Shown piece after piece: positions 1 through 46,932 of a stretch of 64,000 nucleotides of DNA. This DNA is from Escherichia coli (GTDB lineage Bacteria; Pseudomonadota; Gammaproteobacteria; Enterobacterales; Enterobacteriaceae). A model generated the notes under the pieces. The model saw nothing but the letters and a program-made list of their open reading frames with translations. It was not told where the DNA came from and searched no databases. The stretch lies in NCBI RefSeq assembly GCF_030013205.1, contig NZ_CP122648.1; one strand, 5' to 3'. How positions within the stretch are numbered: the stretch's first letter is position 1; the number at the start of each line of letters is the position of its first letter. The position numbers and the translations under genes were made by a program.

Positions 1-273
1 AAAGATCTTCGGGTTGATAAGCGTGAAACCAGTAACCTTTTTCTTCTTCGGGAGTTTCTGGTCCGTCGGCGCGGAAAGTGGTTACGGGAGGGATTTGTAT
101 ATACCCATAATGACAACGTGCAAACTCAGATATATTTTTCCTGATTTGTTGATAGGTGGCATTAAAAGCATGAAGAATCGCTTCGCCAGGTTTTTTGGGG
201 GTGATGATTTCACATTGTGATTTCTGAACAGCAGTAAGAGATTTACGCTCAAGTGTTTGCCGTAGATGTTCTG
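1..273 (-). CDS. Partial gene of unknown function, truncated by the window edge and by IS1
   Basis: Hand translation of the minus strand shows one frame open across 1-273 (peptide ...PEHLRQTLERKSLTAVQKSQCEIITPKKPGEAILHAFNATYQQIRKNISEF...); the + strand 68-aa ORF here looks spurious. The reading frame runs into the first base of IS1. Confidence 0.3.
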
Positions 274-328
274 GGTGATGCTGCCAACTTACTGATTTAG
301 TGTATGATGGTGTTTTTGAGGTGCTCCA

Positions 329-604
329 GTGGCTTCTGTTTCTATCAGCTGTCCCTCCTGTTCAGCTACTGACGGGGTGGTGCGTAACGGCAAAAGCACC
401 GCCGGACATCAGCGCTATCTCTGCTCTCACTGCCGTAAAACATGGCAACTACAGTTCACTTACGCCGCCTCTCAGCCCGGTACGCACCAGAAAATCATTG
501 ATATGGCCATGAATGGCGTCGGATGTCGCGCCAGTGCACGCATTATTGGCGTTGGCCTCAACACGATTTTCCGCCACTTAAAAAACTCAGGCCGCAGTCG
601 GTAA
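329..604 (+). CDS. insA: IS1 InsA (transposition repressor / N-terminal part of InsAB' transposase)
   Basis: 91-aa [43 protein letters not shown]... (zinc finger plus HTH); A6C slippery motif near 580-586. Confidence 0.9.
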
Positions 605-1026
605 CCTCGCGCATACAACCGGGCAGTGATGTGATTGTCTGCGCTGAAATGGACGAACAGTGGGGCTACGTCGGTGCTAAATCACGTCAGCGCTGGCTGT
701 TTTACGCGTATGACAGGATGCGGAGGACGGTTGTGGCGCACGTCTTCGGTGAACGCACTCTGGCCACACTGGAGCGTCTTCTGAGCCTGCTGTCGGCCTT
801 TGAGGTCGTGGTATGGATGACGGATGGCTGGCCGCTGTATGAATCACGCCTGAAGGGAAAGCTGCACGTTATCAGCAAGCGTTATACTCAGCGCATTGAG
901 CGGCATAACCTGAATCTGAGACAACATCTGGCAAGGCTGGGACGGAAGTCACTGTCGTTCTCAAAATCGGTGGAGCTGCATGACAAGGTCATCGGGCATT
1001 ATCTGAACATAAAACACTATCAGTAA
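523..1026 (+). CDS. insB: IS1 InsB reading frame (expressed as the InsAB' fusion by -1 frameshift)
   Basis: 167-aa ORF overlapping the insA 3' end in the -1 frame; sequence ...[22 protein letters not shown]... Confidence 0.85.
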
Positions 1027-1036
1027 GTTGGAGTCA

Positions 1037-1648
1037 TTACCCAATTTTTGAACTGTCTTTAAGATGAATATTACGGATAAGAAAACGAATGTAGTTATCG
1101 TTTTTAGATTCCCAGTGCGTATATTTACCAACTATGCTATTATTTTCTGACTGCCAGTGATCGAATGCTGTCTGTCCACTTATATTTTTATGATTAATGT
1201 CGCAACCAGCCTCAATTAGTGCATCGTACACATATCCTTCAAATGGAATGAAAAGAAAGGAATTGCCATAGCTATCTTTGGTATGGATATCTAGTCCTGC
1301 TTTGATAAGATATTTTACTAACCCTGGTGAAACATCAATATGTTGAATCGCAAGGGTGCCTGACTTATTCCGGTGGTTAACATTAATACCATTGCTGACA
1401 AGAAGTTCCACTGTTTCAACATTTTGAGCATAGAATAATGCATTATTACCGTCATTATCCAAGTGGTGAATGTCAATGTCAGCGTCAATCATTGCCTGTA
1501 TAGCTTCAGGTACATTACAGGTAAAAAGAGCAGTTTGACCTTTACTATTGCACATATTTATATCCATGCCAGCCTTAAGGCAACGAAGGACACCATTTTT
1601 AGACTTTACACGGAATAGGTTATTTTTATTATTTTCTCTTGATATCAT
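1037..1648 (-). CDS. Ankyrin-repeat protein; its stop codon lies inside the IS1 terminal repeat, so the C-terminus may be truncated
   Basis: 203-aa ORF with repeated ankyrin-like units (GQTALFTC..., DGNNALFYAQ..., SGTLAIQH..., YGNSFLF..., SGQTAFDHW); stop codon at 1037-1039 is within the last 5 bp of IS1; AT-rich DNA. Confidence 0.7.
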   Translation of the reverse strand: MISRENNKNNLFRVKSKNGVLRCLKAGMDINMCNSKGQTALFTCNVPEAIQAMIDADIDIHHLDNDGNNALFYAQNVETVELLVSNGINVNHRNKSGTLAIQHIDVSPGLVKYLIKAGLDIHTKDSYGNSFLFIPFEGYVYDALIEAGCDINHKNISGQTAFDHWQSENNSIVGKYTHWESKNDNYIRFLIRNIHLKDSSKIG

Positions 1649-2167
1649 TGTTTATCTCCTTTTTTGTTGTTTTCAAGATATTAATGACACCAGATTTTAC
1701 GGTATTCAAATTTATTTTTGTTTTATTAGGGGGTATCTGATTTGGTTTGCTTAAGGTTATTCTTAACTTAATGGAACATAGGGACGTTAAGGTTATCCTA
1801 TGTGATGTGGATTAACCATTTTCACAAGAATATTTATCCATATTGGAACTAATCTGTATAAAGGAGATAATTAGAGGCTCAGATATTAATACTATAGAGA
1901 GTAATGCTATAGGATATGGAAAAGATCATGTAATATAATGGTGGTTATTAATGTTCATCTTAATTTTGGAAATTAAATGAGTAGTGTTTTTTATGAGGTT
2001 TTTTGCTGTTGATAATTCTTATTAAAATTTGAAGAGCATCCTTTAAGTTATTCGGCTTGAGGATGCTCATTTAAAATTTAAGCAGCGTAGTCTTTTTCAA
2101 CAGCCAGGAAGGGGTGATGCTGCCAACTTACTGATTTAGTGTATGATGGTGTTTTTGAGGTGCTCCA

Positions 2168-2569
2168 GTGGCTTCTGTTTATATCAGCTGTCCCTCCTGT
2201 TCAGCTACTGACGGGGTGGTGCGTAACGGTAAAAGTACTGCCGGACATCAGCGCTATCTCTGCTCTCACTGCCGTAAAACATGGCAACTGCAGTTCACTT
2301 ACACCGCTTCTCAACCCGGTACGCACCAGAAAATCATTGATATGGCCATGAATGGCGTTGGCCTCAACACGATTTTACGTCACTTAAAAAACTCAGGCCG
2401 CAGTCGGCAACCTCGCGCATACAGCCGGGCAGTGACATCATCGTCTGCGCGGAAATGGACGAACAGTGGGGCTACGTCGGGGCTAAATCGCGGCAGCGCT
2501 GGCTGTTTTACGCGTATGACAGGCTCTGGAAGACGGTTGTTGCGCACGTATTCGGTGAACGCACTATAG
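2168..2569 (+). CDS. insA: IS1 InsA variant (11-aa deletion, read-through)
   Basis: [19 protein letters not shown]...[16 protein letters not shown] lacks [11 protein letters not shown] and continues past the usual stop (TAA changed to CAA). Confidence 0.7.
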
Positions 2570-2832
2570 CGACGCTGGAGCGTCTTATGAGCCTGCTGTC
2601 ACCCTTTGACGTGGTGATATGGATGACGGATGGCTGGCCGCTGTATGAATCCCGCCTGAAGGGAAAGCTGCATGTAATCAGCAAGCGATATACGCAGCGA
2701 ATTGAGCGGCATAACCTGAATCTGAGGCAGCATCTGGCACGGCTGGGACGGAAGTCGCTGTCGTTCTCAAAATCGGTGGAGCTGCATGACAAAGTAATCG
2801 GGCATTATCTGAACATAAAACACTATCAATAA
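2455..2832 (+). CDS. insB: IS1 InsB frame of the variant copy
   Basis: 125-aa [30 protein letters not shown]..., near-identical to copy 1 InsB. Confidence 0.7.
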
Positions 2833-2877
2833 GTTGGGACCATTACCAAATAGTTTATATGCTAAAAATTTAGGGAA

Positions 2878-5800
2878 TCATTTTCCTAATTCTCCAGCTA
2901 AAAGTTCAGCCTGCTTCAAAACAGTCTCTGTGGCGAGCAATGACATATCAGGCGGATAACCATATTTTTTGAGCAGACGTTTTACCACCACGCGAATTTT
3001 TGCTCTTGCTGCTTCTTTCACTGTCCAGTCAAGACTGACATTGTTGCGGATAGCCTCCGTAAGTACGACTGCCAGTTCTCGTAGTTTTTCCTTTTCCATT
3101 AACTCGCGAGCACTGTCGTTATCTGCAACAGCAGAATAGAAGGCATATTCATAAGCGCTGAGGTTTAACTGGCTGGCAAGGCTGTCAGATTCCTGGATAG
3201 TCTTGGCAAGCTTGATTAGCTCATCAATTACCTCCGCTGCGGTCAGTACCTTGTTCTGGTAGCCATTGATTGCAGAGGTCAGCATATCAATCAGTTTTTT
3301 GCCTTGGGTGATACTTTGATTCGAGCGAACCTTGATCTCGTCAGAAAGCAGTTTTTTAAGCGTTTCCAAAGCAATATTTCTGTGTTGGTAATCCTTCATT
3401 TCCTGAAGGAATTCTTCAGAAAGAACGGAAATATCAGGTTTTTGTATCCCAGCAGCGTCAAAAATATCAACAACTTTATCGGTAACCAGAGCCTGATCGA
3501 TAGTCTGTTTTACCCGAACTTCGAGACTGTCATTGTGTTCTTCTTCTGATCCGTCTGAGTTTTCAGTAAATTTATTCAGTCTGGCTTTTACTGCCTGGAA
3601 GAATGCTACTTCGGGTGCCGCTTCCATTGCTTTATCGTGCGGTGTCGCCAATGCAAATGCCTGCGATAAGGCTGCAACCGCAGCGAGGAAACGCATTTTA
3701 CCTTTACCGTTATCCAGCCCTAAAATATGGTTTTCTGATTCAAGAATAATTGTCAGGCGTTGTGAGGTAGTTGCGGCAAAGTAAGCTTTGTAATCGTATC
3801 CATGCATCATGCCTTCCAGGATTTCCAGCTTTTCCTGCATGAGCGTTACGGCTTCTTCCTGAACCTCAGCAGGATCTCCACGTCCACCTGCATCAGAGTA
3901 AAAGGAGAGGGCTTCTTTTAAATCAGAGGCAATGCCCAGATAGTCAACAACCAGACCGCCTATCTTATCTTTATACACACGGTTCACACGGGCAATTGCC
4001 TGCATAAGGTTGTGGCCTTTCATTGGTTTGTCGATATACAGCGTATGCATGCTGGGAGCGTCGAAGCCGGTTAACCACATATCACGCACTATCACCAGTT
4101 TCAGCTTGTCGTCGTCATCCTTCATACGGTTAGCCAGAACCTGACGTTCTTTTTTTGTGGTGTGGTGTTTGGCAATTTCTGGCCCGTCAGCAGCAGAAGA
4201 GGTCATGACGACTTTTATTATACCGTCATTTAAATCATCGCTGTGCCATTCAGGTTTTAAGGCTATGATTTCTTTATATAGTTCAGCAGCAATACGGCGG
4301 GACATGGTAACAATCATGCCCTTACCATGATCGGCATTGGATTTTAAGCGCTGCTCAAAGTGCAGAACCATATCCGCCGCAATCGCTTTAATACGTTTTG
4401 AACTGCCAATCAAACCTTCGATTCTGGCCCATTTAGAACGTTCTTTTTGCGTGAGCGTCAGTTCGTCCTCGTTAAACTCATCATCAAAGTCTTCAATAAG
4501 CTGACGACCTTCATCACTGATGGCAATTTTGGCAAGACGGCTTTCATAAAAGATACGAACTGTTGCACCATCTTCAACGGCCTGCGAGATATCGTAGATA
4601 TCAACATAGTTACCAAAAACAGCAGGCGTGTTGACGTCCGTTTTTTCTATGGGGGTTCCGGTAAAGCCGAGATAGGTCGCATTAGGTAAGGCATCACGCA
4701 TATATTTGGCAAAGCCGTAAACGGTGCGTTTACCTGTTACGTTGCCTTCGCTGTCTTTCACGTCAACTTCTTTGGCGCTGAAACCGTACTGGGAACGGTG
4801 TGCTTCATCAGCGATAACGACAATATTGGTTCTGTCTGACAACAACTCATAGATATTGCTGCCATCATCAGGCTGGAATTTTTGAATAGTAGTAAACACC
4901 ACACCGCCAGAGGCGACACGCAAATATTCTTTGAGTTCTTCCCGGTTGTTGGCCTGTTTTGGTGTCTGACGAAGTAGCTGGGTCGCGGAAGAGAACGTAC
5001 CGAATAGCTGATCATCTAAGTCGTTACGGTCAGTAATCACAACAACTGTCGGATTATCCAGCGCCAGCACAATTTTCCCGGTATAAAACACCATCGAAAG
5101 CGATTTACCGGAACCCTGAGTATGCCAGACTACGCCCGCTTTGCGATCTCCGGTTTTTTGCGCATTAACAAGATCTTTACTGTTACGTCCCTGCTGGCGC
5201 AGTGCCACTTCGGCAGAGGGGGAGTCCGCATTCACCGCTGAGGCACGAATAGTGGAAAGAACTGCTGCATTGACCGCGTAGTACTGGTGATAAGCCGCCA
5301 TTTTTTAACAGTACGGATACTGATAATCCCTTTGCTGTCTTCATGTTTGCTGGCCTCAAACACGATAAAGTGGCGGATTATATCCAGCAGCGTTACAGGA
5401 TTAAGCAACCCCTGTAATAAAACTTCAAGCTGTGGTTGGGTACTGGTGGCTTGCGTTTTACCGTTAGCAGTTTTCCACGTCATATAACGACTGAAATCGG
5501 CAGAAACCGTCCCCGCTTTGGCTTCCAGCCCGTCAGATATCACATTAAAAGCATTGTAGTTAAACAGACCGGGGATTTGGTTCTGATAGGTTTTAATCTG
5601 ATTATAGGCACCTGTTACCGTTGCATTTTCGTCAGCGGCATTTTTAAGTTCGATAACGACTAATGGCAGGCCATTGATGAATAAAATAAGATCAGGTCGG
5701 CGGGTATGGTTGCCTTCTTTGATGGTGAGCTGATTAATGACCAGAAATGCATTATTAGTGGGATCGTTAAAGTCGATCAGGCTGGCCAGTTCTCCTTGTG

Positions 5801-6116
5801 TATTACCATCCTTGCTGACTTCGATATTGATTCCTTCGGTCAAAAGGCGATGAAAGGTTAGATTGTTTGCCATTAGGTCAGGTGAGCTGATCTGCATCAC
5901 CTGTTTTAGAGCTTCTTCACACTTCTGCTCACTAAGGTGCGGGTTAATTCGTTGCAATGCTGTACGCACTTTATCTTCAAGGATAACCTGCTGATAGCTA
6001 CGTAACGGATTGATTCCACTGGGTTCAATGTCCGGGCCGTAAACATACTCATAGCCCAGCCCTTGCAGGTGCTCAATTGCCATTACTTCAATATCGGATT
6101 CGGTCATCTTTGCCAT
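2878..6116 (-). pseudogene. hsdR: Type I restriction enzyme R subunit (HsdR), split by a -1 frameshift in a homopolymer tract
   Basis: Two overlapping ORFs: 5232-6116 (N-terminal 294 aa) and 2878-5301 (807 aa with Walker A TQGSGKS and DEAD-like VIADEAHR). The junction is a 6-nt T run at 5301-5306 (A6 on the coding strand); adding one A would join the frames as ...[15 protein letters not shown]... Confidence 0.85.
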
Positions 6117-6174
6117 GCGTACTGTCCTTATTGCCGCTTAACCAGAGAGCGGGCTGTACACCCGCATAATTATT

Positions 6175-7368
6175 TTATGCTACTGATGCGATTGCTTCTT
6201 CCGCATACTGAACCCGTACTTCGCCGCTCATCAGTTTGGGAAGGAGAGTGTCGCGCAGAGATTCTATGTTTTTAATTTGTGAGTTGTTAATACTTATTTT
6301 TTTCCAGAAGAAATCAATCTGTGTAGTGAATTCTTTCACCATACACTCCGGGGGGAGTTTGAATTCTGGGCGTTGTAATCCGTCAGCCGACAGCTGATTT
6401 ACAGTTGAACCGTTAGTTGCAGCAACAACTTGCTCATGCATATCTTTGGAGCAAAGTAAATAGTACAGAAAAGCATTGGTTAAGTAACTATCGTCATTGA
6501 TGCTGATTTTAAATAAATGATGCGTATATATGGATAATTCGCTTTCTGTTTTTGGAATTATAGCAGGATACCCTATGAGTCGATATTCATGGCCCTGTTC
6601 TGTATTGGCTACAATGATATCCCCAGGCTTTATAATATGCCTTTCTTTAAAATCACCATTGTAGTATTTTATACCTGCACTCTTATAACCACCGCCCTCA
6701 AGTACTGAGTTCAAACTAAAAAGTGGAATGCCGTTATCTGACGTGGTAAGGCCGGCTCCCTTGTAGCTTAATCCCTTAGCTACTGTAATATGACAATCAA
6801 GAGTCGTTATTTCCCAATCCGCATGCGTCTCTTCAATAAACCACTGTCTAAATAGGGTTTCTGCCATGGATTCCAGAGTTTTATTCTGGCGATGAAGCAG
6901 GTCTATTTTGTCTTTAAGAGAGGACAAAATAGAGGCGATGGCTTTTTGTTCAGATTCATCAATTGGTAAGTAAAGAGGAATCAAATTTAGCGATGCTTTA
7001 TTTAATTTTGGTTGAGCAGCACCTGTTAAATAAGGAGATAGATCAAGTTGTGAAAAATATTGGATTATCAATGCCGTTAAATGGGGCTTTTTAGCTTTAA
7101 GGACATGAGCGTGATTATTAACCCAAAATTTTCCAGTAGCTTCAAATGCTATAGGTGTTTTTCTGGACTTTAAGTTTTCTCCATCTTCAGAAATAAGGAT
7201 GTAGCTGCCATCAAAAATATAATTGTCGATATAATCGACAATTCCTGACGCTCCATAATATGGAAAATTTCCTTTCTTATGGGCTCGTTCCATAGCACTC
7301 AAAGGAATTCTTTGTGCGTTGCAAAAATCTGCTAATTCAGTTATACAAAAATTTCTCCACCTACTCAT
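6175..7368 (-). CDS. hsdS: Type I R-M specificity subunit (HsdS)
   Basis: 397-aa ORF between hsdM and hsdR; its start overlaps the hsdM stop (ATGA); two-target-recognition-domain architecture inferred from length and position. Confidence 0.8.
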
Positions 7369-8912
7369 AAAACCACCTTCGCCAGATTATCAACGATGGC
7401 TCTGTTCAGACGCGCCTCTTCTTCCAGTTGCGCTTCAAACTCAGCTTTAAGAGCCGTAAAGCGTTCTTTAAAGTCGAAATCGTCTTCTTCATCAGCAAGA
7501 CCAACATAACGGCCAGGTGTCAGCACATAATCGAGTTTAGCAACTTCAGCAATGTCTACTGACGCACAGAAACCAGCGACGTCTTCGTAGTCGCCACCTT
7601 TGTTACGCCAGTTATGATAGGTATCAGCGATGGTTTTTATATCGTCGTCAGAAAGTACTTTGGTACGACGATTAATTAAATGACCGAGATTACGGGCATC
7701 AATAAACAGAATTTCTTTACTACGATCACGATACTGGTTGCTGTTATGACGGTCACGGCGCATAAACCATAATGCAGCAGGGATCTGAGTATTCAGGAAC
7801 AGCTTTGCCGGTAAGTTGACGATACAGTCAATCACATTGGCATCTTTTACCAGTGCAGCACGAATATCACCTTCACCAGAGCTTTTAGAAGTTAATGCCC
7901 CTTTTGCCAGAACAACACCCGCTTGCCCTTTAGGAGACAAGTGATACAAAAAATGTTGCATCCATGCAAAGTTAGCGTTGCCAGCAGGTGGAATGCCATA
8001 TTGCCAGCGGGCATCACCACGAAGCTGCTCACCAGACCAGTCGGAAACGTTAAACGGTGGGTTAGCTATGATAAAATCAGATTTCAAATCTTTGTGAGCA
8101 TCGTTAAGAAATGAACCTTCATTATTCCAGCGAACGTGTTCAGAATTAATCCCACGAATTGCCAGGTTCATTTTTGCCAGACGCCAAGTGGTCTGGTTGG
8201 ACTCCTGCCCATAGATCGAAATATCGTCAATATTTCCCTGATGTGCTTCTACAAATTTTTCTGACTGAACGAACATACCACCAGAACCACAGCAGGGATC
8301 AAAGACACGGCCTTTATAGGGTTCCAGCATGTTAACCAGCAGGCTTACAATAGATTTTGGCGTATAGAACTGGCCGCCTTGTTTGCCTTCTGCCAGTGCA
8401 AATTCACCTAGGAAGTATTCGAATACGTGACCTAAAACGTCAGCAGAGCGTGCTTTGGCATCTCCTAGTGCAATGTTGCCAATCAGATCTATCAGCTCAC
8501 CCAGAACAGTGGCGTCGAGGTTTTGTCGGGCATAGACTTTCGGCAACACACCTTTTAACTGTGGATTGCCCGCTTCGATAAGCTCCATCGCATCATCAAC
8601 CATCTTACCGATTTCAGGAAGCTTGGCCTTAGAAATCAGATAGTTCCAACGTGCAAGCTCAGGGACAAAGAAAACGTTGTAAGCGGTGTACTCGTCTTTG
8701 TCTTCCGGATCAGCACCTGCGAACTCGCCTTTACCGGCTTTCAGCAACTCATAATGAGATTCAAAAGAATCAGAAATGTACTTAAGGAAAATGAGGCCTA
8801 GTACGACGTGCTTGTACTCGGCTGCATCAATGTTTTTACGCAGTTTGTCTGCCGCTTTCCACAGGATGACCTCTAACGGGTCTGTTTTGATTTCTTTAGG
8901 TTTTCTGGCCAT
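7365..8912 (-). CDS. hsdM: Type I R-M N6-adenine DNA methyltransferase subunit (HsdM)
   Basis: 515-aa ORF with SAM-binding [11 protein letters not shown] and catalytic NPPF motifs. Confidence 0.9.
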
Positions 8913-9075
8913 TAGCGTAACCTTATGAAGGGGGAAGATGGCCCTATTTTGCCTTAAAGTTCCGCTTGTTACGAGCTTATACAGCGATTAATTATTATCT
9001 GGTTTTAGTGTGTTCGTGTAGCTCAGCAAGTGCAATGACTCATGGAGTAAATGCTTTGTAGCGGGATTGTAGATG

Positions 9076-9393
9076 TCAGGTCATTGCCGTCAATGGAGCC
9101 AGTGTCATTGGCATAATTGCTGCACAGCCGATGCCACGCGCACATTCGCTAGTTCACTGTGGTTCATCGTGTGTACTACACCAGTACGCAGTCCGGGAAG
9201 TAACGGCATGGCAGAATCGTTTGTAAAGACGTTCAAGCGGGATTATGTGTACGTAGATGATCTGCTGGATGCAGTCTAAATGATGGAAACAATGGCAGAA
9301 TAGATAGAGGATTATAATAATCTGCATCCACACAAGGGGTTGAACATGAAATCGCCACGCGAATATCGTGATGCCATATTAGCAGTTAATTAG
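9076..9393 (+). pseudogene. IS2-like (IS3 family) transposase 3' remnant, truncated and interrupted by stop codons
   Basis: Translation ...VRSPGSNGMAESFVKTFKRDYV... then, after stops, ...IEDYNNLHPHKGLNMKSPREYRD... matches the C-terminus of IS2 InsD as I recall it ([20 protein letters not shown]...YNEWHPHSALGYRSPREY). Confidence 0.55.
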
Positions 9394-10508
9394 CCGTGTC
9401 CGTTTTAGCAGGGACAACTCCAGTATTCAAAAAAGCTTTCTTAGTGCATATGCATGAGGTGAATAGATGTACAGGCTATGACAAACCATAGTTGTAATTT
9501 TTAATGTTTAAAATTCTCCGTTACAGTAGGACATTCCTTGTACATTAAATTCCATCTAAGGTTGAATTTTTAATTTAATAAGGTCGCAATCTAAAATGAT
9601 GTGTATGGGGTTATTTGTAAGATGATTTTTTATTTTTGATAGTGGTGATTAAGGGAGCGGGTAATGTTTGTCTATTCAAAAATATAGAGATTCAAGGTTG
9701 GTAGCAGTTTGGCTTCTTTTATAACCGAAGGGCAGAAAAGCAAGGGGAACTCGAAGAAGCAAGCGCAGCGGCTTCGCAGAGTTAGCCCTTGCTTCTCTTA
9801 TAATTGGCATTATTCATTCAAGAACAATAGGATCTTCGCTTGTACAAGCGAAGCTATAATAAAAACAATCAATTAATAATTTTAAAAGTATTAAACAAGA
9901 ACCTATTGACATTCATAAAATACAAGTTATTTATAATGTATGCCATAAATAAAAAGTTTTATGTCATATGTATCCTGCACTATGTGCAGTTAATGTACCA
10001 CTTGTCCCATAGATGGGAATATTGGAAAGGTTACTTTGTTTTGAAGTAGCCTTTCGTCCTTCAATATTAACGATTACTTATTGCTATTACCAAGTCCAGT
10101 CGAATCGAAGAACATCTTTTATCTGAAACGACTCCTAATACCCGGTTAAAGCCACAATATCTCTCGCATACGTAGACCAAAGAAAAATTATGATATTAAC
10201 TATGTGATTTTTTTTAGTGTTAAGTTGAATAATTAAATACTGGAGAGTTTTCTGTGCACTACCAATTGCTGGTTCATCTGTTCTGCCGCTGATGTTTCTG
10301 ACGAATCTCCCGGTGACACAGAACTGTCCCTCTCTACCAGCCTTTATTCGACTCAATGTCCGGCTGCTGATACGCAGTTATCCCTTCGTATCAATGACTG
10401 ACACTTAAACGTAATGCTTTGGTTGCTGGCGTATCTGACAGCTTCTTCGGCGTGAAGGTCGTTGTGTAAGTATACTTCTTGGTTTATTTAGGCTATATAA
10501 AACCATGA

Positions 10509-11405
10509 CTATGACTTGCTGTTTTCAGTAAGAGTCTTATCATCCAAAGAATTTATTCTAGAAATTCTTTTTAACTCATTAAGATAATCAACCTCGTTTT
10601 CTAAGAACCAATGAAGAACTTTAGAATTGCCAAGTAATTTATTAATATATGACTGGATTATAACGAATTTCAACATATCTGAACCATACTCGGTTTGAAG
10701 CTTTTTCGTTTCTTCCGAAGTTGTTGCCATTTCTTGTTCCAGACGAAGTATGGTTTTTTTTATGTCCTTTTTATAGGGAGTGTTTTTCCCTTTATTTACT
10801 ATCATCGATGCCGGTGTTGCATCCAAGATGCTCATTGCAAATTTTTTACTATAATTATCAAAATTAATCATTGTACCGACTGCTTCAATTTGGCGAATTG
10901 GCTTCATTTTCCTCAAAACGTCAAATGTAGCCTTAGGTATAGGTTTATCAGAAAGTTTCGCAATTACACTTGGATCTATGCCGTTCATCACATTCGCTTT
11001 ATCTTTTATGGCATCAACAGATATGCCCAAAGCAGCACTAAGTTTTTCAATTGATACTTTTGCCAGAGACTTAATTATCATTCTATGTTCTTCAACTACA
11101 TTTATATGATTCACTTGTTTGTTAGGAGTGAAAGCATCATCTATGCTCGAAAGTATACATGGAGCTTTTTCTATACCTAAGTCTTTTAAAGCCTCAACCC
11201 TTAAATGGCCATCAAGTATCTTAGTGACATCTTTATCTTTGTCATAGAATACTATTATTGGTTCAATAATACCTAAGCTTTCGATAGAGGTAACTATTTG
11301 ATGATATTTATGGCTTCGCTTTACGTTTTCTAATAATTCCTTAGATGGAATTAACTTATTAGTTTCCAGGTAAATAAAATTATCGCCAAAACGTATCTGA
11401 ATCAT
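10509..11405 (-). CDS. ParB/Srx-family protein (second of two tandem paralogues)
   Basis: 298-aa ORF; N-terminal ParB-like motif ...KILDGHLRVEALKDLGIEKAPCIL...; K/N/I-rich; start overlaps the upstream gene stop. Confidence 0.6.
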   Translation of the reverse strand: MIQIRFGDNFIYLETNKLIPSKELLENVKRSHKYHQIVTSIESLGIIEPIIVFYDKDKDVTKILDGHLRVEALKDLGIEKAPCILSSIDDAFTPNKQVNHINVVEEHRMIIKSLAKVSIEKLSAALGISVDAIKDKANVMNGIDPSVIAKLSDKPIPKATFDVLRKMKPIRQIEAVGTMINFDNYSKKFAMSILDATPASMIVNKGKNTPYKKDIKKTILRLEQEMATTSEETKKLQTEYGSDMLKFVIIQSYINKLLGNSKVLHWFLENEVDYLNELKRISRINSLDDKTLTENSKS

Positions 11406-12298
11406 TTTAATACCTCTTTGTTTACTGGGGTTAATATCTGAGATGGTAGTTCTGAAAGATTCTCTTGTTCAAGTATATGTTGAAAGCTTTTATTTATCAT
11501 TATGATGTTAAAAATCTCATTTACTATTAGTAGGTTGGTTTTTATGAATTTTGAGTTGTTATAAACAGATTTATGTTCAGCGATACTATTTTCATAAAGC
11601 TCAATCAACTCCTCTGCAGTCATCCTTTTTGATGGTTTGTGATAATAAAATCCGGCTGCTTTTGCACCTTTATTCCCAACTGTTCTTTGATTTAGAATGT
11701 GTTTTATCTTTATAATGTCCCGACTTTTTATTAATTTTTTATCATATGCTTCGGTAAGAATATCTTGTGCTTCCTCAGTTTCACATCTTGCAAATTGCAC
11801 TGCGAGATACAGAGGCAAATTACCCCGTTCGACTGCTGAGAGAAGTTTATGCTCTCCCTTATCAAGTAGCATATTAATACTGCTCACCCAGTTCGATGAA
11901 TATCCAGTAATCTCACTTATTTCGGAGTCTGAAAGTCCTCTGATTTTCATGTCTTTAATCACCTGTAATAACTCATTAGAACGTGGTCTTCTCCTTGCAA
12001 TGTTTTCAACTAAACTCATAACGTAAGCATCTTCTTCTGATACATCTCTTATAATTGCTGGAATAATAGTTTCACCTAATGCAACGAGAGCCTCTATTCT
12101 CCCTTGACCACAAATTAAAGCATATTTGAAATCGCCTTCATCAATAGCTCTTACGCTTATTGGCTTGCTTAATCCTCTTTTTTTTATGCTTTCCTTTATT
12201 TCTTCATGCACTACCTTATTTCTTGTTCGTGGGTTAAGAAATTTTATTTTTGCAATCTCAATTTGAATTATTGGGAATTCATTTTTTTCAGGCAGCAT
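11402..12298 (-). CDS. ParB/Srx-family protein (first of two tandem paralogues)
   Basis: 298-aa ORF; ...KPISVRAIDEGDFKYALICGQGRIEALVALGETIIPAIIRDV...LVENIARR... resembles ParB box regions followed by an HTH-like segment; no ParA partner adjacent. Confidence 0.6.
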   Translation of the reverse strand: MLPEKNEFPIIQIEIAKIKFLNPRTRNKVVHEEIKESIKKRGLSKPISVRAIDEGDFKYALICGQGRIEALVALGETIIPAIIRDVSEEDAYVMSLVENIARRRPRSNELLQVIKDMKIRGLSDSEISEITGYSSNWVSSINMLLDKGEHKLLSAVERGNLPLYLAVQFARCETEEAQDILTEAYDKKLIKSRDIIKIKHILNQRTVGNKGAKAAGFYYHKPSKRMTAEELIELYENSIAEHKSVYNNSKFIKTNLLIVNEIFNIIMINKSFQHILEQENLSELPSQILTPVNKEVLK

Positions 12299-13844
12299 AT
12301 AGTTCCCTCACTTTCATGCGAGTAATAATTTGTAGAAGTTTATCAAGATTATCAAATCTATAGAGATCTAATCGAATGTTGTTTGTTTCCGTCATGCACA
12401 TTTTATTATATTCGTTTTCAATCTTTGGTATGATATAAAAATCAAGAGGTGAAATATTTTGTGAATTCATTCGTATAACAATTGTTATGTCTGCTTTCTG
12501 TGAGTTATCAAACCGGACTTTCCATCTAAGTTTACCTGATTTCATATGTATGCATTTAGTAACAAGGACGGAAATTAAAAACTCATCATTGATGTAAAGC
12601 ATTGGGGCATATTTATACTCGTCTATATGACAGTTACTTTTTAAAATTTCACCCTTAAAATCCTCAATTATCTCTGAGTAAAATGATCTTAGTGCTTCAT
12701 TTATTTTGAGATAGCTGTAATCATGTTCTGGCTTATAACCAATCAAAGTATATGCTCTTAAAAGACCACCAAATCGGGTTCTATAAACAGAAGATGAAGG
12801 GCCTGTATCATCTTCATCAATGATAAAGCCTGATAGTTTTCCATTAGATTCTAATTTTTGTTTTAGTTTTTCTAATAGATCTTCATTAGTCAAATGAATG
12901 GATCGGAGCTGAATTATTTCTTGAGCTTTATTGTATTTTTTCTTTGAAATAATAGGTTTATATGCCTTGTCACATCTAACCCATTCATGTTTGGGGTTTT
13001 TTACAAGCCTACTTTTTAATTTAGATGAGGTTTTGTTATATATGTTGTTTCCAATATATTTTTCATTTGTCAAAATTTGATGTATTTTTGCACGAGTCCA
13101 TAATGTTCCATTTTCTGCAGGTATGTTCTGTTCATTTAATCTCTCAGCAATAATGAATTCTGGGACGTTATTATCTATAAAGAGATCATATATTCTATTT
13201 ACAATTTTTATTTCATTTTTTGGTCCCGGAATTAATATTACCCTATCTGTTTGAATACTCTTTCTTTTGCGGAAACTCAATATTTCTTTAGCTATGCCAT
13301 TTTCGTCTACTAAAAGACGTCTCAGCCCATAACCAGCCATACCGCCTTGATGATAACCAAGCTTTATTAAATTTACTTGCCCTATAAATACCTTTTCAGA
13401 TAGATTCCTGCTGTGATATGCAGCACTAGATCTTTTTATATTCAGTATAACAGAGGACTCTAAAGGGAAATCTTTAGTGGGTATAGGTTCGGAACAATAT
13501 ATAAGATCTACACCATTTCTCTCAAATAGAAAGGAATAATATGCCGCTTCATCACTATTTTGAAAACGACCAAAACGGCTCACATCATAAAATAATACAG
13601 CCTGTATATCTATTTTCTTTTGTTCTACATCGCTAAGTAACTGCTGCAAAGAATGCCTGCCTACGATACTGACTCCGCTCTTACCTGCATCATCGTAGGT
13701 ATAAGCGATTTCCATATTGTTCTTTTCAGCATAATCTTTGATATATTCGGACTGATTATGTAAAGAATATTGCTGATGGTCGGTAGACATCCTCAAGTAC
13801 TGCGCGACCCTAACTCTATGATTTTTGTCATTTTCGCTAGCCAT
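12288..13844 (-). CDS. Large serine recombinase (resolvase/invertase catalytic domain plus C-terminal recombinase domain)
   Basis: 518-aa ORF; N-terminus VAQYLRMSTDHQQYSLHNQ... carries the catalytic-serine motif typical of serine recombinases; overlaps the downstream ParB-like gene by 11 nt. Confidence 0.7.
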   Translation of the reverse strand: MASENDKNHRVRVAQYLRMSTDHQQYSLHNQSEYIKDYAEKNNMEIAYTYDDAGKSGVSIVGRHSLQQLLSDVEQKKIDIQAVLFYDVSRFGRFQNSDEAAYYSFLFERNGVDLIYCSEPIPTKDFPLESSVILNIKRSSAAYHSRNLSEKVFIGQVNLIKLGYHQGGMAGYGLRRLLVDENGIAKEILSFRKRKSIQTDRVILIPGPKNEIKIVNRIYDLFIDNNVPEFIIAERLNEQNIPAENGTLWTRAKIHQILTNEKYIGNNIYNKTSSKLKSRLVKNPKHEWVRCDKAYKPIISKKKYNKAQEIIQLRSIHLTNEDLLEKLKQKLESNGKLSGFIIDEDDTGPSSSVYRTRFGGLLRAYTLIGYKPEHDYSYLKINEALRSFYSEIIEDFKGEILKSNCHIDEYKYAPMLYINDEFLISVLVTKCIHMKSGKLRWKVRFDNSQKADITIVIRMNSQNISPLDFYIIPKIENEYNKMCMTETNNIRLDLYRFDNLDKLLQIITRMKVRELYAA

Positions 13845-14014
13845 GCACGAAACCTCATGGATGATTCAATACAATGTAGTGGATAAAATTGATCAAATTT
13901 CAACCGAATTCAACTGTTTTATCATTGATTAGAGCGAATTTGGTAGATCTTCGAGGTGTATGATAATCGAGAAGAGATGTGAATTATTTAGCTGATATGA
14001 CCGACAGCTTTCGT

Positions 14015-14064
14015 TATGTGGACTCAATGTCCCCATTTGTAAATGGCTATGCTTAGTCCACATA
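14015..14064. repeat. Inverted repeat TATGTGGACT ... AGTCCACATA (10-bp arms, about 30-bp spacer) upstream of the serine recombinase gene
   Basis: Seen directly in the sequence (approximate coordinates); lies in the 282-bp gap between the serine recombinase and the integrase. Confidence 0.5.
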
Positions 14065-14126
14065 GGTTAATGGTGTGATTATTAATTCTTTAACTAAATC
14101 AAGATAGTTAATCCATCATGGGAGAG

Positions 14127-15356
14127 TTATGCGGCCATAACTTTGCATTTTTGAGACGAAACATAGTCACTCCACCATTGCATGAGAACCACCCGTTCAG
14201 TGAGATACTCTGCACGATTGTAGGCTGCAATTATTTCATCTTTCTTCGAGTGGGCAAGGGCGGCTTCTAAGACATCAGTCCTAAACTTGCCAGACTCCTC
14301 AGCAGCCGTTCTAGCAATGGATCGCATACCGTGAGCTACAAGCTCACCTCCGAAACCCATACGGATTATGGCCGCATTAGCTGTTTGTTCATGCATGTGA
14401 TTGAGTGGAGCTTTGATACTGGGGAACACCCACTCTCTATGCCCGCTGATGACTTTCATTAAATCCAAAACTCGCAAAGCTTCTTTGCTCAGTGGAACTT
14501 TGTGAGGCTTCTTCATTTTCATAAACTCCGCCGGGATGTTCCACATGCCAGTTTCAATATCAATATCTGACCATCTTGTGCGAACAGCTTCACCTGGGCG
14601 AACCCATGTGAGAAGTTGCCACTCAATCAGTAGCCTTGTTTCCAAACGGATAGAAGCATTGTTTAGAGCAACCAAGAAGCGAGGGAGTTCGGAAGGGGGT
14701 AATGCTGGCATATTCTGTTTTTTTGGCTTGCTGAACCGTTGCCCCAGGTTGTCTGCCGGGTTGAATTCTATGAGTTCTTCTGTTGCTGCATAGCGGAAAA
14801 TTTCATTCAGGCGGGATATGATGCGGCGAAGTGTTTCAAGGACACCTCGTTTTTCTATGGGTTCTAAATGCTGTTTAAGCATTTTAGGGCGAATCTCCTT
14901 AATTGGGGTATCACCCAATGTGGAAAAGATATTTCTCTCTAGGCTTCGCCAGATGTCGTTAGCATGATCTTGGGAGATGCCTGACGTTTTGACTTTCTCA
15001 TCAAGCCACTTCTTGGCTACTGCTTGAAATGTATGTTCCGTGGCATCTTTCAGTGCATTGGCTTTTTGGTTGTTATGAACTTGGGGGTCTATACCATTTG
15101 TAAGCAACGACAAGTATTCATCACGTAAAGCTCGTGCCTTCGCAAGTGTAAGGTGAGGATAGGTTCCTAAGCTCACCTTAGTTCGCTTTTTGGTCACAGG
15201 CACTGCATATCTGAAATACCAATTTTTCTTCCCTCCCTTCGCCAGGGGAGCGATTCGCAACAGCAAACCATCGCCGTCAAAAAGGTTAACCTCTTTTTCG
15301 GCAGGTTTGGTGCTTTTGATTTCAGTGTCAGTGAGCTTCTTAGCGATTTTGGCCAT
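14127..15356 (-). CDS. intA: P4-type tyrosine integrase (IntA-like) at the 3' end of ssrA
   Basis: ORF 14127-15437 (GTG start in the track); probable start at 15356 (MAKIAKKLTDTEIK...), matching the N-terminus of CP4-57 IntA as recalled; conserved ...HGMRSIARTAA... region. Confidence 0.85.
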   Translation of the reverse strand: MAKIAKKLTDTEIKSTKPAEKEVNLFDGDGLLLRIAPLAKGGKKNWYFRYAVPVTKKRTKVSLGTYPHLTLAKARALRDEYLSLLTNGIDPQVHNNQKANALKDATEHTFQAVAKKWLDEKVKTSGISQDHANDIWRSLERNIFSTLGDTPIKEIRPKMLKQHLEPIEKRGVLETLRRIISRLNEIFRYAATEELIEFNPADNLGQRFSKPKKQNMPALPPSELPRFLVALNNASIRLETRLLIEWQLLTWVRPGEAVRTRWSDIDIETGMWNIPAEFMKMKKPHKVPLSKEALRVLDLMKVISGHREWVFPSIKAPLNHMHEQTANAAIIRMGFGGELVAHGMRSIARTAAEESGKFRTDVLEAALAHSKKDEIIAAYNRAEYLTERVVLMQWWSDYVSSQKCKVMAA

Positions 15357-15522
15357 GTTTGGGACCCTCGATTTTAGGACCCATCTTCGTGGGTCCCATT
15401 CAGGGTGCCATAACTCGTAGTTCTCAGCAATTCTCACTAGACTACAATAGACGTAAAAAAGCCCGCAGAGCTTGTGCTGTGCGGGCTTAGTAGACTTTAC
15501 TGAACTTCAGTACATCAATATT

Positions 15523-15885
15523 TGGTGGAGCTGGCGGGAGTTGAACCCGCGTCCGAAATTCCTACGTCCTCGGTACTACATGCTTAGTCAGTCTTTACAT
15601 TCGCTTGCCAGCTGCGGACGGACACGCCACTAACAAACTAGCCTGATTAAGTTTTAACGCTTCAACCCCAGGCAGGGCTTCCACGCGATCTCTTTTGGGT
15701 TTGACCTCTCTTGATCCCCGTCCTAAGAGCGGAGGCTAGGGAGAGAGGGCTCTAAGCAGGTTATTAAGCTGCTAAAGCGTAGTTTTCGTCGTTTGCGACT
15801 ATTTTTTGCGGCTTTTTACGAGGCCAACCGCCCCTCGGCATGCACCTTGGGTTTCGCAAATCCCGTCGAATCCAGAATCAGCCCC
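15523..15885 (-). ncRNA. ssrA: tmRNA (SsrA), 363 nt
   Basis: Reverse complement begins GGGGCTGATTCTGGATTCGACGGG and ends ...GGGTTCAACTCCCGCCAGCTCCACCA; the tag-template region is present. Confidence 0.95.
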
Positions 15886-16099
15886 AATGTGTAACGGCAA
15901 GTATACCAGATTTATGAGCGCCATGACCAGCCTCAATGGCGTTATCGTTAAAGATTTAGCACCCATGTAGCCTGATTTTTATTCGATTAAGCAATGGGAT
16001 GGCAACATTTGTGTCGGATGTGATAGCCAATAAGATGTTCATTCGCGCCGCCGGAGAGGGAGGCGCGGTGAGGAACTGGTCAATAATTGGAGTGCAGGT

Positions 16100-16582
16100 T
16101 TAACGGTGGGCGTTTTTCATGATACGCGCTTTATCCACCTGCCATTCGCGCTCTTTGATATCTGAACGTTTATCGTGCTGTTTCTTACCTTTGGCGACGC
16201 CGATTTTCACTTTGCACCAGGCATTTTTCCAGTACAGGGAGAGCGCCACTACGGTATAGCCTTCTCGATTGACGCGACCGTACAATGAGTCCAGTTCGCG
16301 CTGGTTGAGAAGTAACTTGCGGGTACGGGTAGGATCGCACACCACATGCGTGGAGGCCACGGCCATTGGCGTGATGTTAGCGCCAAACAGAAATGCCTCT
16401 CCGTCACGCAGAAGGACGTAGCTGTCGCTGATATTGGCTTTTCCTGCGCGCAGGGATTTAACCTCCCAGCCTTGCAGGGCAAGTCCCGCTTCGAACTCTT
16501 CTTCGATAAAGTATTCGTGACGGGCGCGCTTGTTAAGCGCGATGGTCGCTGAACCAGGTTTATGTGCTTTTTTCTTCGTCAT
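16100..16582 (-). CDS. smpB: SsrA-binding protein SmpB
   Basis: 160-aa [48 protein letters not shown]... Confidence 0.95.
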
Positions 16583-16713
16583 AAGCGTCGTGAATCATCG
16601 GTAATCTGAAATCGAAAACACCCCATATCAATCCTGCGGGGGACAAGGCTCTATCTTAGCATGAACCCGATGTTACCCAGCGCCGGGATAGCGTTTTTTT
16701 TACAGCAGGATAA

Positions 16714-17190
16714 ATGATATTATTTGTTGGATTTTTGTTGATGGAAATTGTTATGCCTCAGATTAGCCGGACCGCACTGGTACCCTACAGCGCGGAGCAA
16801 ATGTATCAGTTAGTGAATGACGTTCAGTCTTATCCTCAGTTTTTGCCGGGTTGTACCGGAAGTCGGATTCTGGAGTCCACTCCTGGGCAGATGACTGCGG
16901 CGGTAGATGTCTCTAAGGCTGGGATCAGCAAAACGTTTACTACCCGCAACCAGTTGACCAGTAACCAAAGTATTCTTATGAATCTGGTGGATGGGCCGTT
17001 CAAGAAATTGATCGGTGGCTGGAAGTTTACGCCGCTGAGTCAGGAGGCGTGCCGTATCGAGTTTCATCTCGATTTTGAGTTTACCAATAAGTTGATTGAA
17101 CTCGCCTTTGGCCGCGTGTTTAAAGAGCTGGCGGCTAATATGGTCCAGGCTTTTACGGTTCGTGCGAAAGAGGTTTACAGTGCCAGGTAA
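16714..17190 (+). CDS. ratA: Ribosome association toxin RatA (YfjG)
   Basis: 158-aa ORF ...[34 protein letters not shown]...; the true start may be the internal Met. Confidence 0.85.
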
Positions 17191-33960: not shown

Positions 33961-34046
33961 AAAACCCACTGAATTCAATGTTTTCCCTTTGTTTTCAGTG
34001 GGTTTTGTTATTGGTGGGGGTTACTGATTACCCTATAAAACCCACT
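33961..34046. repeat. Putative prophage attL / integrase arm-site region with AAAACCCACT repeats
   Basis: AAAACCCACTGAA and its reverse complement TTCAGTGGGTTTT form a 13-bp inverted repeat; a third direct copy AAAACCCACT overlaps the int stop codon (approximate coordinates). Confidence 0.5.
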
Positions 34047-35035
34047 TATGTGGATGAAATGTGGATGCCTCCTTTTAATGGATTAAGTGAAATTGCATCC
34101 TGGAGGAAATCAGGAGCGAGGTGCGCATAGGTCATAGTTTGCTGGATCGTGGCGTGCCCCATAATTCGCTGGAGCGTAAGTATATTTCCTCCATTAATCA
34201 TAAAGTGAGCAGCAAAGGTATGGCGTAGAACATGTACAGCCTGTCCTTTTGGTAGGTCTGGCTTAACACTGCGAAGCACCTTGCGATATTCTTCATAATT
34301 GACGTCAAACAAAAGGCCGGATTTCTTTGTTTTGATCTCACTAACAACTTCATCAGAGACAGGAATAATTCGAACTTTTCCGTTTTTAGTTTTGTTAAAC
34401 GTCACGCGATTATTGATGATGTGTTCCGCGCGCAGATTTTTCGCTTCTCCCCATCTCGCCCCAGTACTGAGACAAAGTAGCGTAATCCGCCGAGCATCAC
34501 CGCTTACTGCATCCAGCAATTTGGCGATTTCTTCCGTAGTGAGGTACGTCATTTCGGGTGATTTTCGTTTCAAAGAGGGGAGGGCGCGGAGTGGATTTTC
34601 TCCGTGAAATTCTCCGGCATTTGCCAGGAGTGTAAACATTCCTCCGAGATCCGACTCATCACGCCGAACAGTAGACTCTTTTACTCCCAAGGATAAACGG
34701 GAGCTTCGATAAGCTGCCATGAAACGAGCATTAATCTGGCTAACCCTTGGATCATTCATTTCTTTGATGATTTTTTTCAATCTGGTTAGAACGCCGTTAG
34801 CATATGGCTTATTGCGTCCACCCAATTCCCACCATAACGGAAGCAGATCTGAGAGATGACGTTGCTCTGTTGGCTTTTCAAGCCATTCCTTATCGTGCAT
34901 GTGGCTGAGAACATAGCGCTCAAAGGCCACTGCATCTGCCTTTTTCTTAAAAATCCGCTGGATCCGACGTCCACTTCGGCCACGCGGTCTAACATCCACT
35001 TTATACCGTCCACCATCGAGTGCTTTAATTGCCAT
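34046..35035 (-). CDS. int: P2-type prophage integrase (tyrosine recombinase)
   Basis: Probable start MAIKALDGGRYKVDVRPRGRSGRRIQ...; C-terminus ...HVLRHTFAAHFMINGGNILTLQRIMGHATIQQTMTYAHLAPDFLQDAISLNPL matches P2 Int as recalled. Confidence 0.9.
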   Translation of the reverse strand: MAIKALDGGRYKVDVRPRGRSGRRIQRIFKKKADAVAFERYVLSHMHDKEWLEKPTEQRHLSDLLPLWWELGGRNKPYANGVLTRLKKIIKEMNDPRVSQINARFMAAYRSSRLSLGVKESTVRRDESDLGGMFTLLANAGEFHGENPLRALPSLKRKSPEMTYLTTEEIAKLLDAVSGDARRITLLCLSTGARWGEAKNLRAEHIINNRVTFNKTKNGKVRIIPVSDEVVSEIKTKKSGLLFDVNYEEYRKVLRSVKPDLPKGQAVHVLRHTFAAHFMINGGNILTLQRIMGHATIQQTMTYAHLAPDFLQDAISLNPLKGGIHISST

Positions 35036-44958: not shown

Positions 44959-46738
44959 CTGACAGGATCCATGTTGATTTGCGCTTGTGCTTATAGTTCA
45001 GGGGTTCATTACTTGCGGCATGAGCTATGGCAAAGAAGATGTCAGCGTGCCCGGTTTCTTCGCTACGTTCGGCGGTGAAAGTGACTTTATTGCCGCTGTT
45101 GGTGGATTCCTGACGAATGGCCAGGAACGATGCCGGAATATCCGTGGCTTCTTCATCCCACTCAATACGGTTGGCGTAAATCAGATCCAGCATCTTCATC
45201 ACCAGGCGGTTTTTGGATTCCACGCTGTAATGAATGGCCACTGTTTCACGGCGGGCAAATCCCTGAACCAGCTCAAAGACACCGTAGCCAAGACCGGTGA
45301 CGTCAATGCCGATAAATGTCATGTTATAGCGCGCCTTAATGCTGCGGATACGCTCTGCCATAAACTGGAATGACATGCTGCGCCAGTGGTGTTTTTCCAG
45401 CACGCGGAATCGTTCTGCCGCAACCAGCGGCGGTGCCAGCACAACAAATGTGGCGTTATCGCCGGAGCGCGCAGGGTCAAAGCCGCCCCACACTTCACGG
45501 TTACCAAATGGCATGGGCTCTTCCGGGTGAAAATCCTCCCACGTACTGACATCAACACCACAACGCACAAGATCATCGAATTTAAAGACGCTCTCTTTGT
45601 CATCCACAAACACACACATAAACAGCATATTGAACGCTGTTTCGTTGTATCGCTCGCGCAGCTCGTTGATGTCAGCAAGGTTAAAGCCGCCGGCAATGGC
45701 ATCTTCCAGCGTAACCACATAGCGCCACTGACCATCCGGACATTCACGCCCACCATCGCGCAGCTCATCAAAGGACGGAAACTCAACCCCTTTTCGTTTC
45801 GGATCGCCTTTGCGCCATTCATCGCCAGACCAGAACGGGTAACCCTGGTGTGTTTTGGATGACGGCGTGGAGAAATAGGTAATGCGCCAGTGTTTATGGG
45901 TGGCCATCCCTGATGCCACTTCATTGAGACGGCGAAAACCGGGGATCCACAGGTATTCATCAATATACAGGTGGCCGCTGTTTGACTGCGCTGTGTTACT
46001 GTTGGTCGCCAGAAAATACAGTTCAGCCAGATTACTTAACTTAACCGGATTGCCTTTAATGGGAATGCCAAACTCTGTTTGTGCAATTTTTACAATATAA
46101 GTACGGAACACTTCGGCCTGACGTTTTGATGCCGATAAAAATATCTGTGTGTCGCCGGTTAATACTGCATCTTCAAATGCCTCAAACGCGAAGTAATACG
46201 TCGCCCCAATCTGGCGGGATTTAAGCAGGTTGCGTACACGGCGGAATTTGTTTTCACGCAGATGCAACTGATAAGCAAACAACTTTTTCGTAAACGGCTC
46301 AAAACTTTCAGCAGTCAGTCCGGAAACGTCATTAGTTTTGCGGGGACGCTCTTTCTTACCTGCACCTTTTTCTCCGCGTTCTTCTTTTCCATAACGGCCA
46401 GGCTGGGGGATGTCCACTCCCATTCGCGCAATCTCAGCCATTCGTTCTGTATGCTTGTTTCTGACCGACATCAGTTTGACGTGATGACCAATCAGGCGAT
46501 CAAGCTCATCGTGTTCTTCCTGGGTCTTATGGTCACGTTCCGCCAGTACAGCGAGACGCCGGGCGATAACATCCTCCACGCCTTCCGTATTGAGCTGCGT
46601 GTACCACTCAAACTTTGTCGCCCAGTAATAAACAATTCGCGGACTGTTCAGTCCGAGTTTCTTTTGTATTTCTTTTGGTGTGTGCCTTTTCAGATAGAGT
46701 GATTTTGCTGCGGCAATCACCTCATCAGAATACGCCAT
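44951..46738 (-). CDS. P: Terminase large (ATPase) subunit (P2 gpP-like)
   Basis: 595-aa ORF with Walker-like KSRQIGATYYFAFEA and a nuclease domain. Confidence 0.85.
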   Translation of the reverse strand: MAYSDEVIAAAKSLYLKRHTPKEIQKKLGLNSPRIVYYWATKFEWYTQLNTEGVEDVIARRLAVLAERDHKTQEEHDELDRLIGHHVKLMSVRNKHTERMAEIARMGVDIPQPGRYGKEERGEKGAGKKERPRKTNDVSGLTAESFEPFTKKLFAYQLHLRENKFRRVRNLLKSRQIGATYYFAFEAFEDAVLTGDTQIFLSASKRQAEVFRTYIVKIAQTEFGIPIKGNPVKLSNLAELYFLATNSNTAQSNSGHLYIDEYLWIPGFRRLNEVASGMATHKHWRITYFSTPSSKTHQGYPFWSGDEWRKGDPKRKGVEFPSFDELRDGGRECPDGQWRYVVTLEDAIAGGFNLADINELRERYNETAFNMLFMCVFVDDKESVFKFDDLVRCGVDVSTWEDFHPEEPMPFGNREVWGGFDPARSGDNATFVVLAPPLVAAERFRVLEKHHWRSMSFQFMAERIRSIKARYNMTFIGIDVTGLGYGVFELVQGFARRETVAIHYSVESKNRLVMKMLDLIYANRIEWDEEATDIPASFLAIRQESTNSGNKVTFTAERSEETGHADIFFAIAHAASNEPLNYKHKRKSTWILSDE

Positions 46739-46822
46739 AAATAAACCTCACCTGCTGATGCAATTTTAATTTATGCATTTTCAGCAAAGGCTTTTTTAAA
46801 AACGAATATCGCTTTTCGGTAT

Positions 46823-46850
46823 TTTTCGGATATATGCGCATATCCGAAAG
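46823..46850. promoter_or_regulatory. Dyad-symmetry element in the divergent P/O late promoter region (candidate Ogr operator)
   Basis: TTTCGGATATATGCGCATATCCGAAA between the divergent terminase and scaffold genes (approximate coordinates). Confidence 0.35.
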
Positions 46851-46932
46851 TACCGGAAATTAATCAGATGACGACGTTTTCATTTCTCCGTTAAATAACG
46901 CCAGTTTAATTTTTATCAGCGGATTAATTCAG

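Follow-up and report, generated by a model that had tools for sequence, protein, structure and literature searches.

In the genome record of Escherichia coli ETEC4079, the hsdR gene of a Type I restriction-modification (R-M) system carried by a genomic island is split at codon 273 by the lack of one A in a run that counts seven in the intact gene, so that this record lacks the uninterrupted frame required of a functional subunit. The same split is recorded from a sister isolate, ETEC4077, it occurs in no other complete genome that we compared, and the adjoining hsdM and hsdS genes are intact. We infer that the base is truly missing from the DNA and that modification would proceed without restriction; indeed, the reading towards which we lean, with some reserve, is a genuine and fixed loss-of-function frameshift in the ETEC4077/4079 sub-clone.

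The split hsdR gene and its surroundings

The window, by which we mean the whole stretch of 64,000 nucleotides that was analyzed, is identical to positions 1215726-1279725 of the chromosome of ETEC4079 (NZ_CP122643.1), a porcine isolate from Belgium. On the minus strand, an upstream hsdR frame of 294 aa (5232..6116) and a downstream frame of 807 aa (2878..5301) overlap by 70 bp at 5232-5301. The coding strand at the split reads ACT GTT AAA AAA TGG CGG, with exactly six A's (5306..5301), the final one of which is also the A of the ATG of the downstream frame. One added A fuses both frames into the exact 1079-aa intact HsdR of the sister strains (WP_001096907.1); the 294-aa product comprises HsdR residues 1-272 followed by 22 out-of-frame residues, and the 807-aa frame corresponds to M273-K1079. 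The preliminary description of this DNA, according to which a seventh A would join the two overlapping frames, proved exact to the base, the fusion being WP_001096907.1 itself. That the locus is frameshifted was already known, since the RefSeq (PGAP) label precedes the present analysis. The features of the locus are the following:

2878..6116, minus strand: whole hsdR locus, annotated by PGAP as the 'frameshifted' pseudogene QDW55_RS05915
5232..6116, minus strand: upstream hsdR frame, 294 aa, with the HSDR_N nuclease domain (residues 4-209), the linker, and 22 out-of-frame residues (from the ORF and Pfam)
2878..5301, minus strand: downstream hsdR frame, 807 aa, with the SWI2/SNF2 motor (278-549), the T1R_D3-like domain, and the HindI-like C-terminal domain (from the ORF and Pfam)
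5301..5306, minus strand: A6 run (T6 on the plus strand; A7 in the intact gene), covering codons K271-K272 and the first base of M273 (from the tract sequence, the sister strains, and 243 exact-match genomes)
4150..4156, minus strand: second A7 run of hsdR, codons T654-K655-K656, intact in ETEC4079 (from the sequence)
6175..7368, minus strand: hsdS, intact, 397 aa, WP_001356249.1 (from annotation and Pfam)
7365..8912, minus strand: hsdM, intact, 515 aa, WP_000101606.1 (from annotation and Pfam)

Once A7 is restored, HsdR displays in Pfam the HSDR_N nuclease of the PD-(D/E)xK type (PF04313) at residues 4-209 (E = 7e-53), all of it inside the 294-aa frame, then the SWI2/SNF2 (SF2, ResIII) motor (PF18766) at 278-549, a T1R_D3-like domain (PF22679) at 653-726, and a HindI-like C-terminal domain (PF11867) at 744-1074. 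These positions place the break in the linker between nuclease and motor. The nuclease domain, the ATP-dependent motor, and the C-terminal domain, together with hsdM (N6_Mtase and HsdM_N, 515 aa) and hsdS (Methylase_S, 397 aa) directly upstream, are those of a Type I HsdR. The best match in the PDB is the HsdR of EcoR124I (2W00, E = 3.7e-29), which resembles the ETEC4079 protein in its HSDR_N nuclease, SF2 motor, and helical and C-terminal domains, and in the hsdM-hsdS-hsdR operon, although the two are only distant relatives and align best over no more than a short stretch. The protein accessions of hsdM and hsdS are identical to those found in strains with an intact hsdR, which bears out the earlier claim that both genes are intact and that the predicted phenotype is modification without restriction. 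Two sigma-70-like promoter matches (10/12 positions) lie on the minus strand, one at 6261-6290, ahead of hsdR and within the 3' end of hsdS, and one at 9066-9093, upstream of hsdM; they would suit separate promoters for hsdMS and hsdR, in a region where the total of such matches is below the expectation from shuffled sequence.

The A run of hsdR is statistically not unusual in the window, which contains 64 homopolymer runs of length 6, 19 of length 7, and 5 of length 8. Two A7 and five A6 runs are present in the intact hsdR, where AAA serves for 62 of the 77 Lys codons and where all five Lys-Lys pairs are written AAA-AAA, a codon usage that accounts for the A7 tract.

The operon belongs to an AT-rich island (window 1-15900) with a GC content of 41%, versus 50% in the flanking core, which is integrated beside ssrA (tmRNA, 15523-15885) and holds an integrase (14127-15356), a serine recombinase (12288-13844), two ParB-like genes, an integrase-core fragment, and two copies of IS1 (329-1026 and 2168-2832). 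One of these IS1 copies truncates an ankyrin-repeat gene (1037-1648), and an alpha-amylase-family gene of the island is truncated too. The hsdR of this island is found in about 318 of 5,426 complete E. coli genomes. Elsewhere in the window, dgcN (yfiN; 27869-29095, minus strand) has a pseudogene annotation on account of an internal stop, as it has in all four sister strains that were fetched, and this stop is probably a real lineage marker. A P2-like prophage, with its integrase at 34046-35035, extends beside pheL/pheA from 34046 to 64000; ETEC4069 has another P2-like prophage at the same site, and ETEC1748, 4067, and 4070 have none, raiA following pheL directly. About 33 kb upstream of the window (coordinates ~16500-16800 of the fetched region), ETEC4069 and ETEC4067 have one 273-bp unit, with one tRNA-Arg copy in it, more than ETEC4079, in which there is thus either a real loss of a tandem copy or an assembly collapse.

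Length of the A run across genomes

Probes of 80-82 nt centered on the tract and carrying A6, A7, or A8 were compared with all 5,426 complete RefSeq E. coli genomes; with probes this short, only perfect matches attain the 99% identity band. The A7 probe, an 81-mer, was found exactly in 243 of 283 genomes, the other 40 being ETEC4079 and 39 genomes with few SNPs, which are in frame because their 81-nt matches are un-gapped. A single record among the 286 that matched the A6 probe did so exactly, namely, that of ETEC4079, and the A8 sequence had an exact match in none of the matching complete genomes. Two diverged hsdR alleles also read AAA AAA ATG. The comparison with orthologous hsdR genes, suggested in the preliminary description, thus yields an intact, in-frame tract in 282 of 283 complete genomes, with ETEC4079 alone at A6; orthologs sharing the two-ORF arrangement, which that description had envisaged as the mark of a functional split enzyme, did not appear among these 283 genomes outside ETEC4079. 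At the second A7 run (4156-4150), neither A6 nor A8 was present among ~290 complete genomes.

Of the sister isolates in the study that yielded ETEC4079, four near-identical ones (ETEC4069, 1748, 4067, and 4070) were aligned with the window and all have A7; over 33.9 kb, the differences amount to the tract indel and one SNP. Three more sisters, 4071, 6333, and 6334, are near-identical to the window and absent from the exact A6 matches. The exact fragments of 294 aa and 807 aa, for their part, stand under two GenBank accessions each, which belong to two genomes (WHH92826.1/WHH97889.1 and WHH92825.1/WHH97888.1, respectively). The second of these genomes is that of the sister isolate ETEC4077, which is not part of the complete RefSeq set and is known here from its protein records and from the longest carrying contig, whose 5,190,196 bp equal the length of the ETEC4077 chromosome (supplement, PMC10151945). 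This isolate has a multi-resistance plasmid in common with ETEC 4078F and 4079 (PMC10151945).

Wider public assemblies contain further alleles of unequal quality. The unrelated run SRR17277027 has A6 at the first tract, which is its single indel over 13.3 kb, along with five SNPs. Among the nine Logan contigs with A6, recognized by the exact 294-aa fragment, seven carry more homopolymer deletions within 1-5 kb, and each contig with A8 at the first tract has 3-5 further +1 insertions in A/T runs, which are a platform signature. Most A6 and A8 contigs for the first tract in this collection of 15 billion proteins are platform noise, and since every A8 contig shows these additional insertions, we rejected the A8 products as a sign of real two-way slippage. 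At the second A7 run, exact frameshift products are present on 10 public contigs for the -1 form (664 aa) and on 21 for the +1 form (662 aa). Contigs that are clean but for this one indel include SRR12024331 and GCA_022976055.1 with A6, and GCA_015330035.1 and 16 similar places with A8, which suggests independent, real pseudogenization at the second run. For each of the A6 runs of hsdR, frameshift products are confined to at most two short Logan contigs, and the gradient between A7 and A6 runs is what one would expect of ordinary slippage if it increases with the length of the run, homopolymer runs being indel hot spots in E. coli (PMC8510543).

Origin of the missing base

The genomes of this study were obtained with ONT R9.4.1, Bonito basecalling, Trycycler assembly, and polishing by medaka only, without short reads (PMC10151945). 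Their authors estimate the accuracy at ~Q50 (PMC10151945), hence ~0.6 errors are expected per 64-kb window, and the sequencing depth of ETEC4079 is ~195x (supplement, PMC10151945). Over ~370 kb of pairwise-comparable sequence, the sister assemblies disagree on six homopolymer lengths (T7/T6 in hsdR, T8/T7 in a ParB-like gene of ETEC1748, C5/C4, A9/A8, A6/A5, and G10/G8) versus four SNP sites, a high indel-to-SNP ratio that looks technical and not biological. The error that typically remains with ONT R9.4.1 is the under-called homopolymer. The T8 at 12175-12182 (plus strand), within a ParB/RepB-like gene (11402-12298), is T7 in ETEC1748, where the gene is annotated as 'frameshifted', and T8 in all other sisters, and this singleton is the same kind of discrepancy as that in hsdR. 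In sister-strain regions outside the window, kgtP (~45775-47074) is annotated as 'frameshifted' in ETEC1748, 4067, and 4070, and the assemblies of these three strains differ, too, in an A9/A8 run immediately ahead of the gene (alignment column 45716).

The call in ETEC4079 may then be a nanopore consensus artifact, the true tract being A7, hsdR being intact and functional, and the under-called homopolymer having survived medaka, an explanation that we take seriously while judging it rather less probable than a real mutation. The loss of one base from a 7-base A/T run, in an R9.4.1-only assembly that lacks short-read polishing and is expected to contain such errors at the above rate, would be typical of this chemistry, as are the singleton one-base homopolymer deletions elsewhere in the sister assemblies, for example, T8 to T7 in ETEC1748. 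The additional deletions in seven of nine Logan A6 contigs show how readily noisy data lose a base at the tract, the extra +1 insertions in all A8-bearing contigs likewise point to the platform, and ETEC4077 and ETEC4079, which come from one sequencing platform, may have been run on a common flow cell and be subject to one run-specific systematic error. However, two separately sequenced isolates give A6, given that both fragments are recorded from ETEC4079 and from ETEC4077, whereas A7 was called in other relatives that passed through this pipeline. The tract is moreover the sole private indel of ETEC4079 in the ~84 kb compared, and longer A8 runs nearby were called correctly and are unchanged. 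The ~195x coverage makes a random sampling error unlikely, so that only a run-specific systematic error would fit, and pure random nanopore error was downgraded in view of the second genome with both fragments and of the clean, unrelated A6 contig.

The clean A6 of SRR17277027 also indicates that this mutation occurs in nature. The genuine frameshift that we favor would have arisen by the unprogrammed loss of one A (A7 to A6) from an ordinary Lys-Lys-Met run in the nuclease-motor linker, A7 runs being ordinary hot spots of replication slippage, and the mutation was most likely inherited by the porcine ETEC4077/4079 sub-clone. It would have turned hsdR into a pseudogene and left the M2S methyltransferase intact, such that the cell would modify but not restrict; the event would thus be a rare loss of function and no switch. 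Strains that have spontaneously become hsdR-null, and in which modification continues without restriction, are a known kind. PGAP 'frameshifted' pseudogenes at mononucleotide runs combine a single-base coding indel, a truncated product, and, as here, an intact adjoining methyltransferase, and we see no substantive difference between this class and the hsdR of ETEC4079. The preliminary description had kept a fixed pseudogene and a sequencing artifact in reserve; both survive, and our preference between them goes to the former.

Phase variation, recoding, and significance

The reading put foremost in the preliminary description, a phase-variable switch in which the run would slip both ways at high frequency and turn restriction ON and OFF under constant methylation, appears very improbable to us. 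A one-base change does toggle the frame, independently of hsdM and hsdS; of the four testable hallmarks of a contingency locus, this is the only one that the tract displays, and it is a trivial one. In other bacteria, R-M genes are known to be switched through homopolymers, 4.3% of the hsdR genes in REBASE having candidate repeats (PMC7383803), and public assemblies contain rare, clean A6 or A8 alleles of the two A7 runs. As in the repeat-mediated phase-variable R-M genes, such as the poly-C hsdR of Helicobacter and repeat-containing hsdS and hsdM genes (PMC7383803), the length of a repeat in an hsd ORF sets the frame. Yet the REBASE survey of repeat-containing hsd genes required mononucleotide tracts of at least 9 bases (PMC7383803), and the present tract has 7, or 6 in ETEC4079. 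Length polymorphism among the strains that carry hsdR, another hallmark of contingency loci, is likewise lacking beyond ETEC4079: at the first tract, A6 occurs in 1 and A8 in 0 of the 283 complete genomes, 243 having A7 and 39 more being in frame; the second run is constant among the ~290 genomes, and the four aligned, near-identical sisters agree at the first tract. That A7 is retained in diverged alleles is due to its coding for K-K-M. We therefore reject phase variation on the population data from the A6, A7, and A8 probes and on the length of the tract. E. coli is proficient in mismatch repair, and its known phase variation proceeds by DNA inversion or Dam methylation, not through short runs; to our knowledge, short-run slippage is not a means of phase variation in this species. 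We also regard as highly unlikely a milder proposal, in which the two A7 runs of the island-borne hsdR would be low-frequency, evolvable OFF (possibly ON) sites at which restriction is repeatedly lost by slippage and methylation is kept. The clean, independent alleles cited for it are A6 at the first run (SRR17277027) and both A6 and A8 at the second; were it true, the barrier to foreign DNA would be transiently lowered.

Next to no probability attaches, in our estimate, to a functional HsdR in two pieces or to slippage along the A run, in translation or transcription, that would restore useful amounts of the full-length protein. The sequence does suggest that tRNA-Lys, on a -1 slip at AAA-AAA, would pair again without mismatch and that the product would be precisely the wild-type V-K-K-M, and the gene is broken in a linker between domains. 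However, programmed frameshifts of the dnaX, prfB, or IS1 insAB' type come with a conserved two-ORF layout, an in-phase heptamer, and downstream structure, and none of these was found here: the layout is confined to ETEC4079 among the 283 complete genomes, the zero frame GTT AAA AAA TGG offers no in-phase X XXY YYZ heptamer, and the fold of the ~100 nt downstream is weaker than that of shuffled controls (z = +1.77). Nor does the internal ATG have, as judged by eye, a Shine-Dalgarno-like sequence upstream (CCGTACTGTTAAAAAATG). On these grounds, we rejected both a programmed frameshift and a functional split, while conjecturing that a weak, unprogrammed -1 slip of tRNA-Lys could yield traces of wild-type HsdR. 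On the plus strand, a terminator-like hairpin ending in the T6 run (5285-5300) was discarded as a weak 5-bp match, the regional total of such matches being at chance level.

Either main outcome is unremarkable, and the significance of the split is small. If the missing base is an artifact, it adds one more homopolymer error to an R9.4.1 assembly that was not polished with short reads. The lesson is that when a gene is split at a short homopolymer in a long-read-only assembly, sister genomes should be compared before regulation is proposed. If the base is really missing, as we favor, one porcine ETEC sub-clone would be devoid of restriction by its island-borne Type I system while its DNA would still be methylated, and the entry of plasmid or phage DNA into the ETEC4077/4079 clone could be slightly eased.
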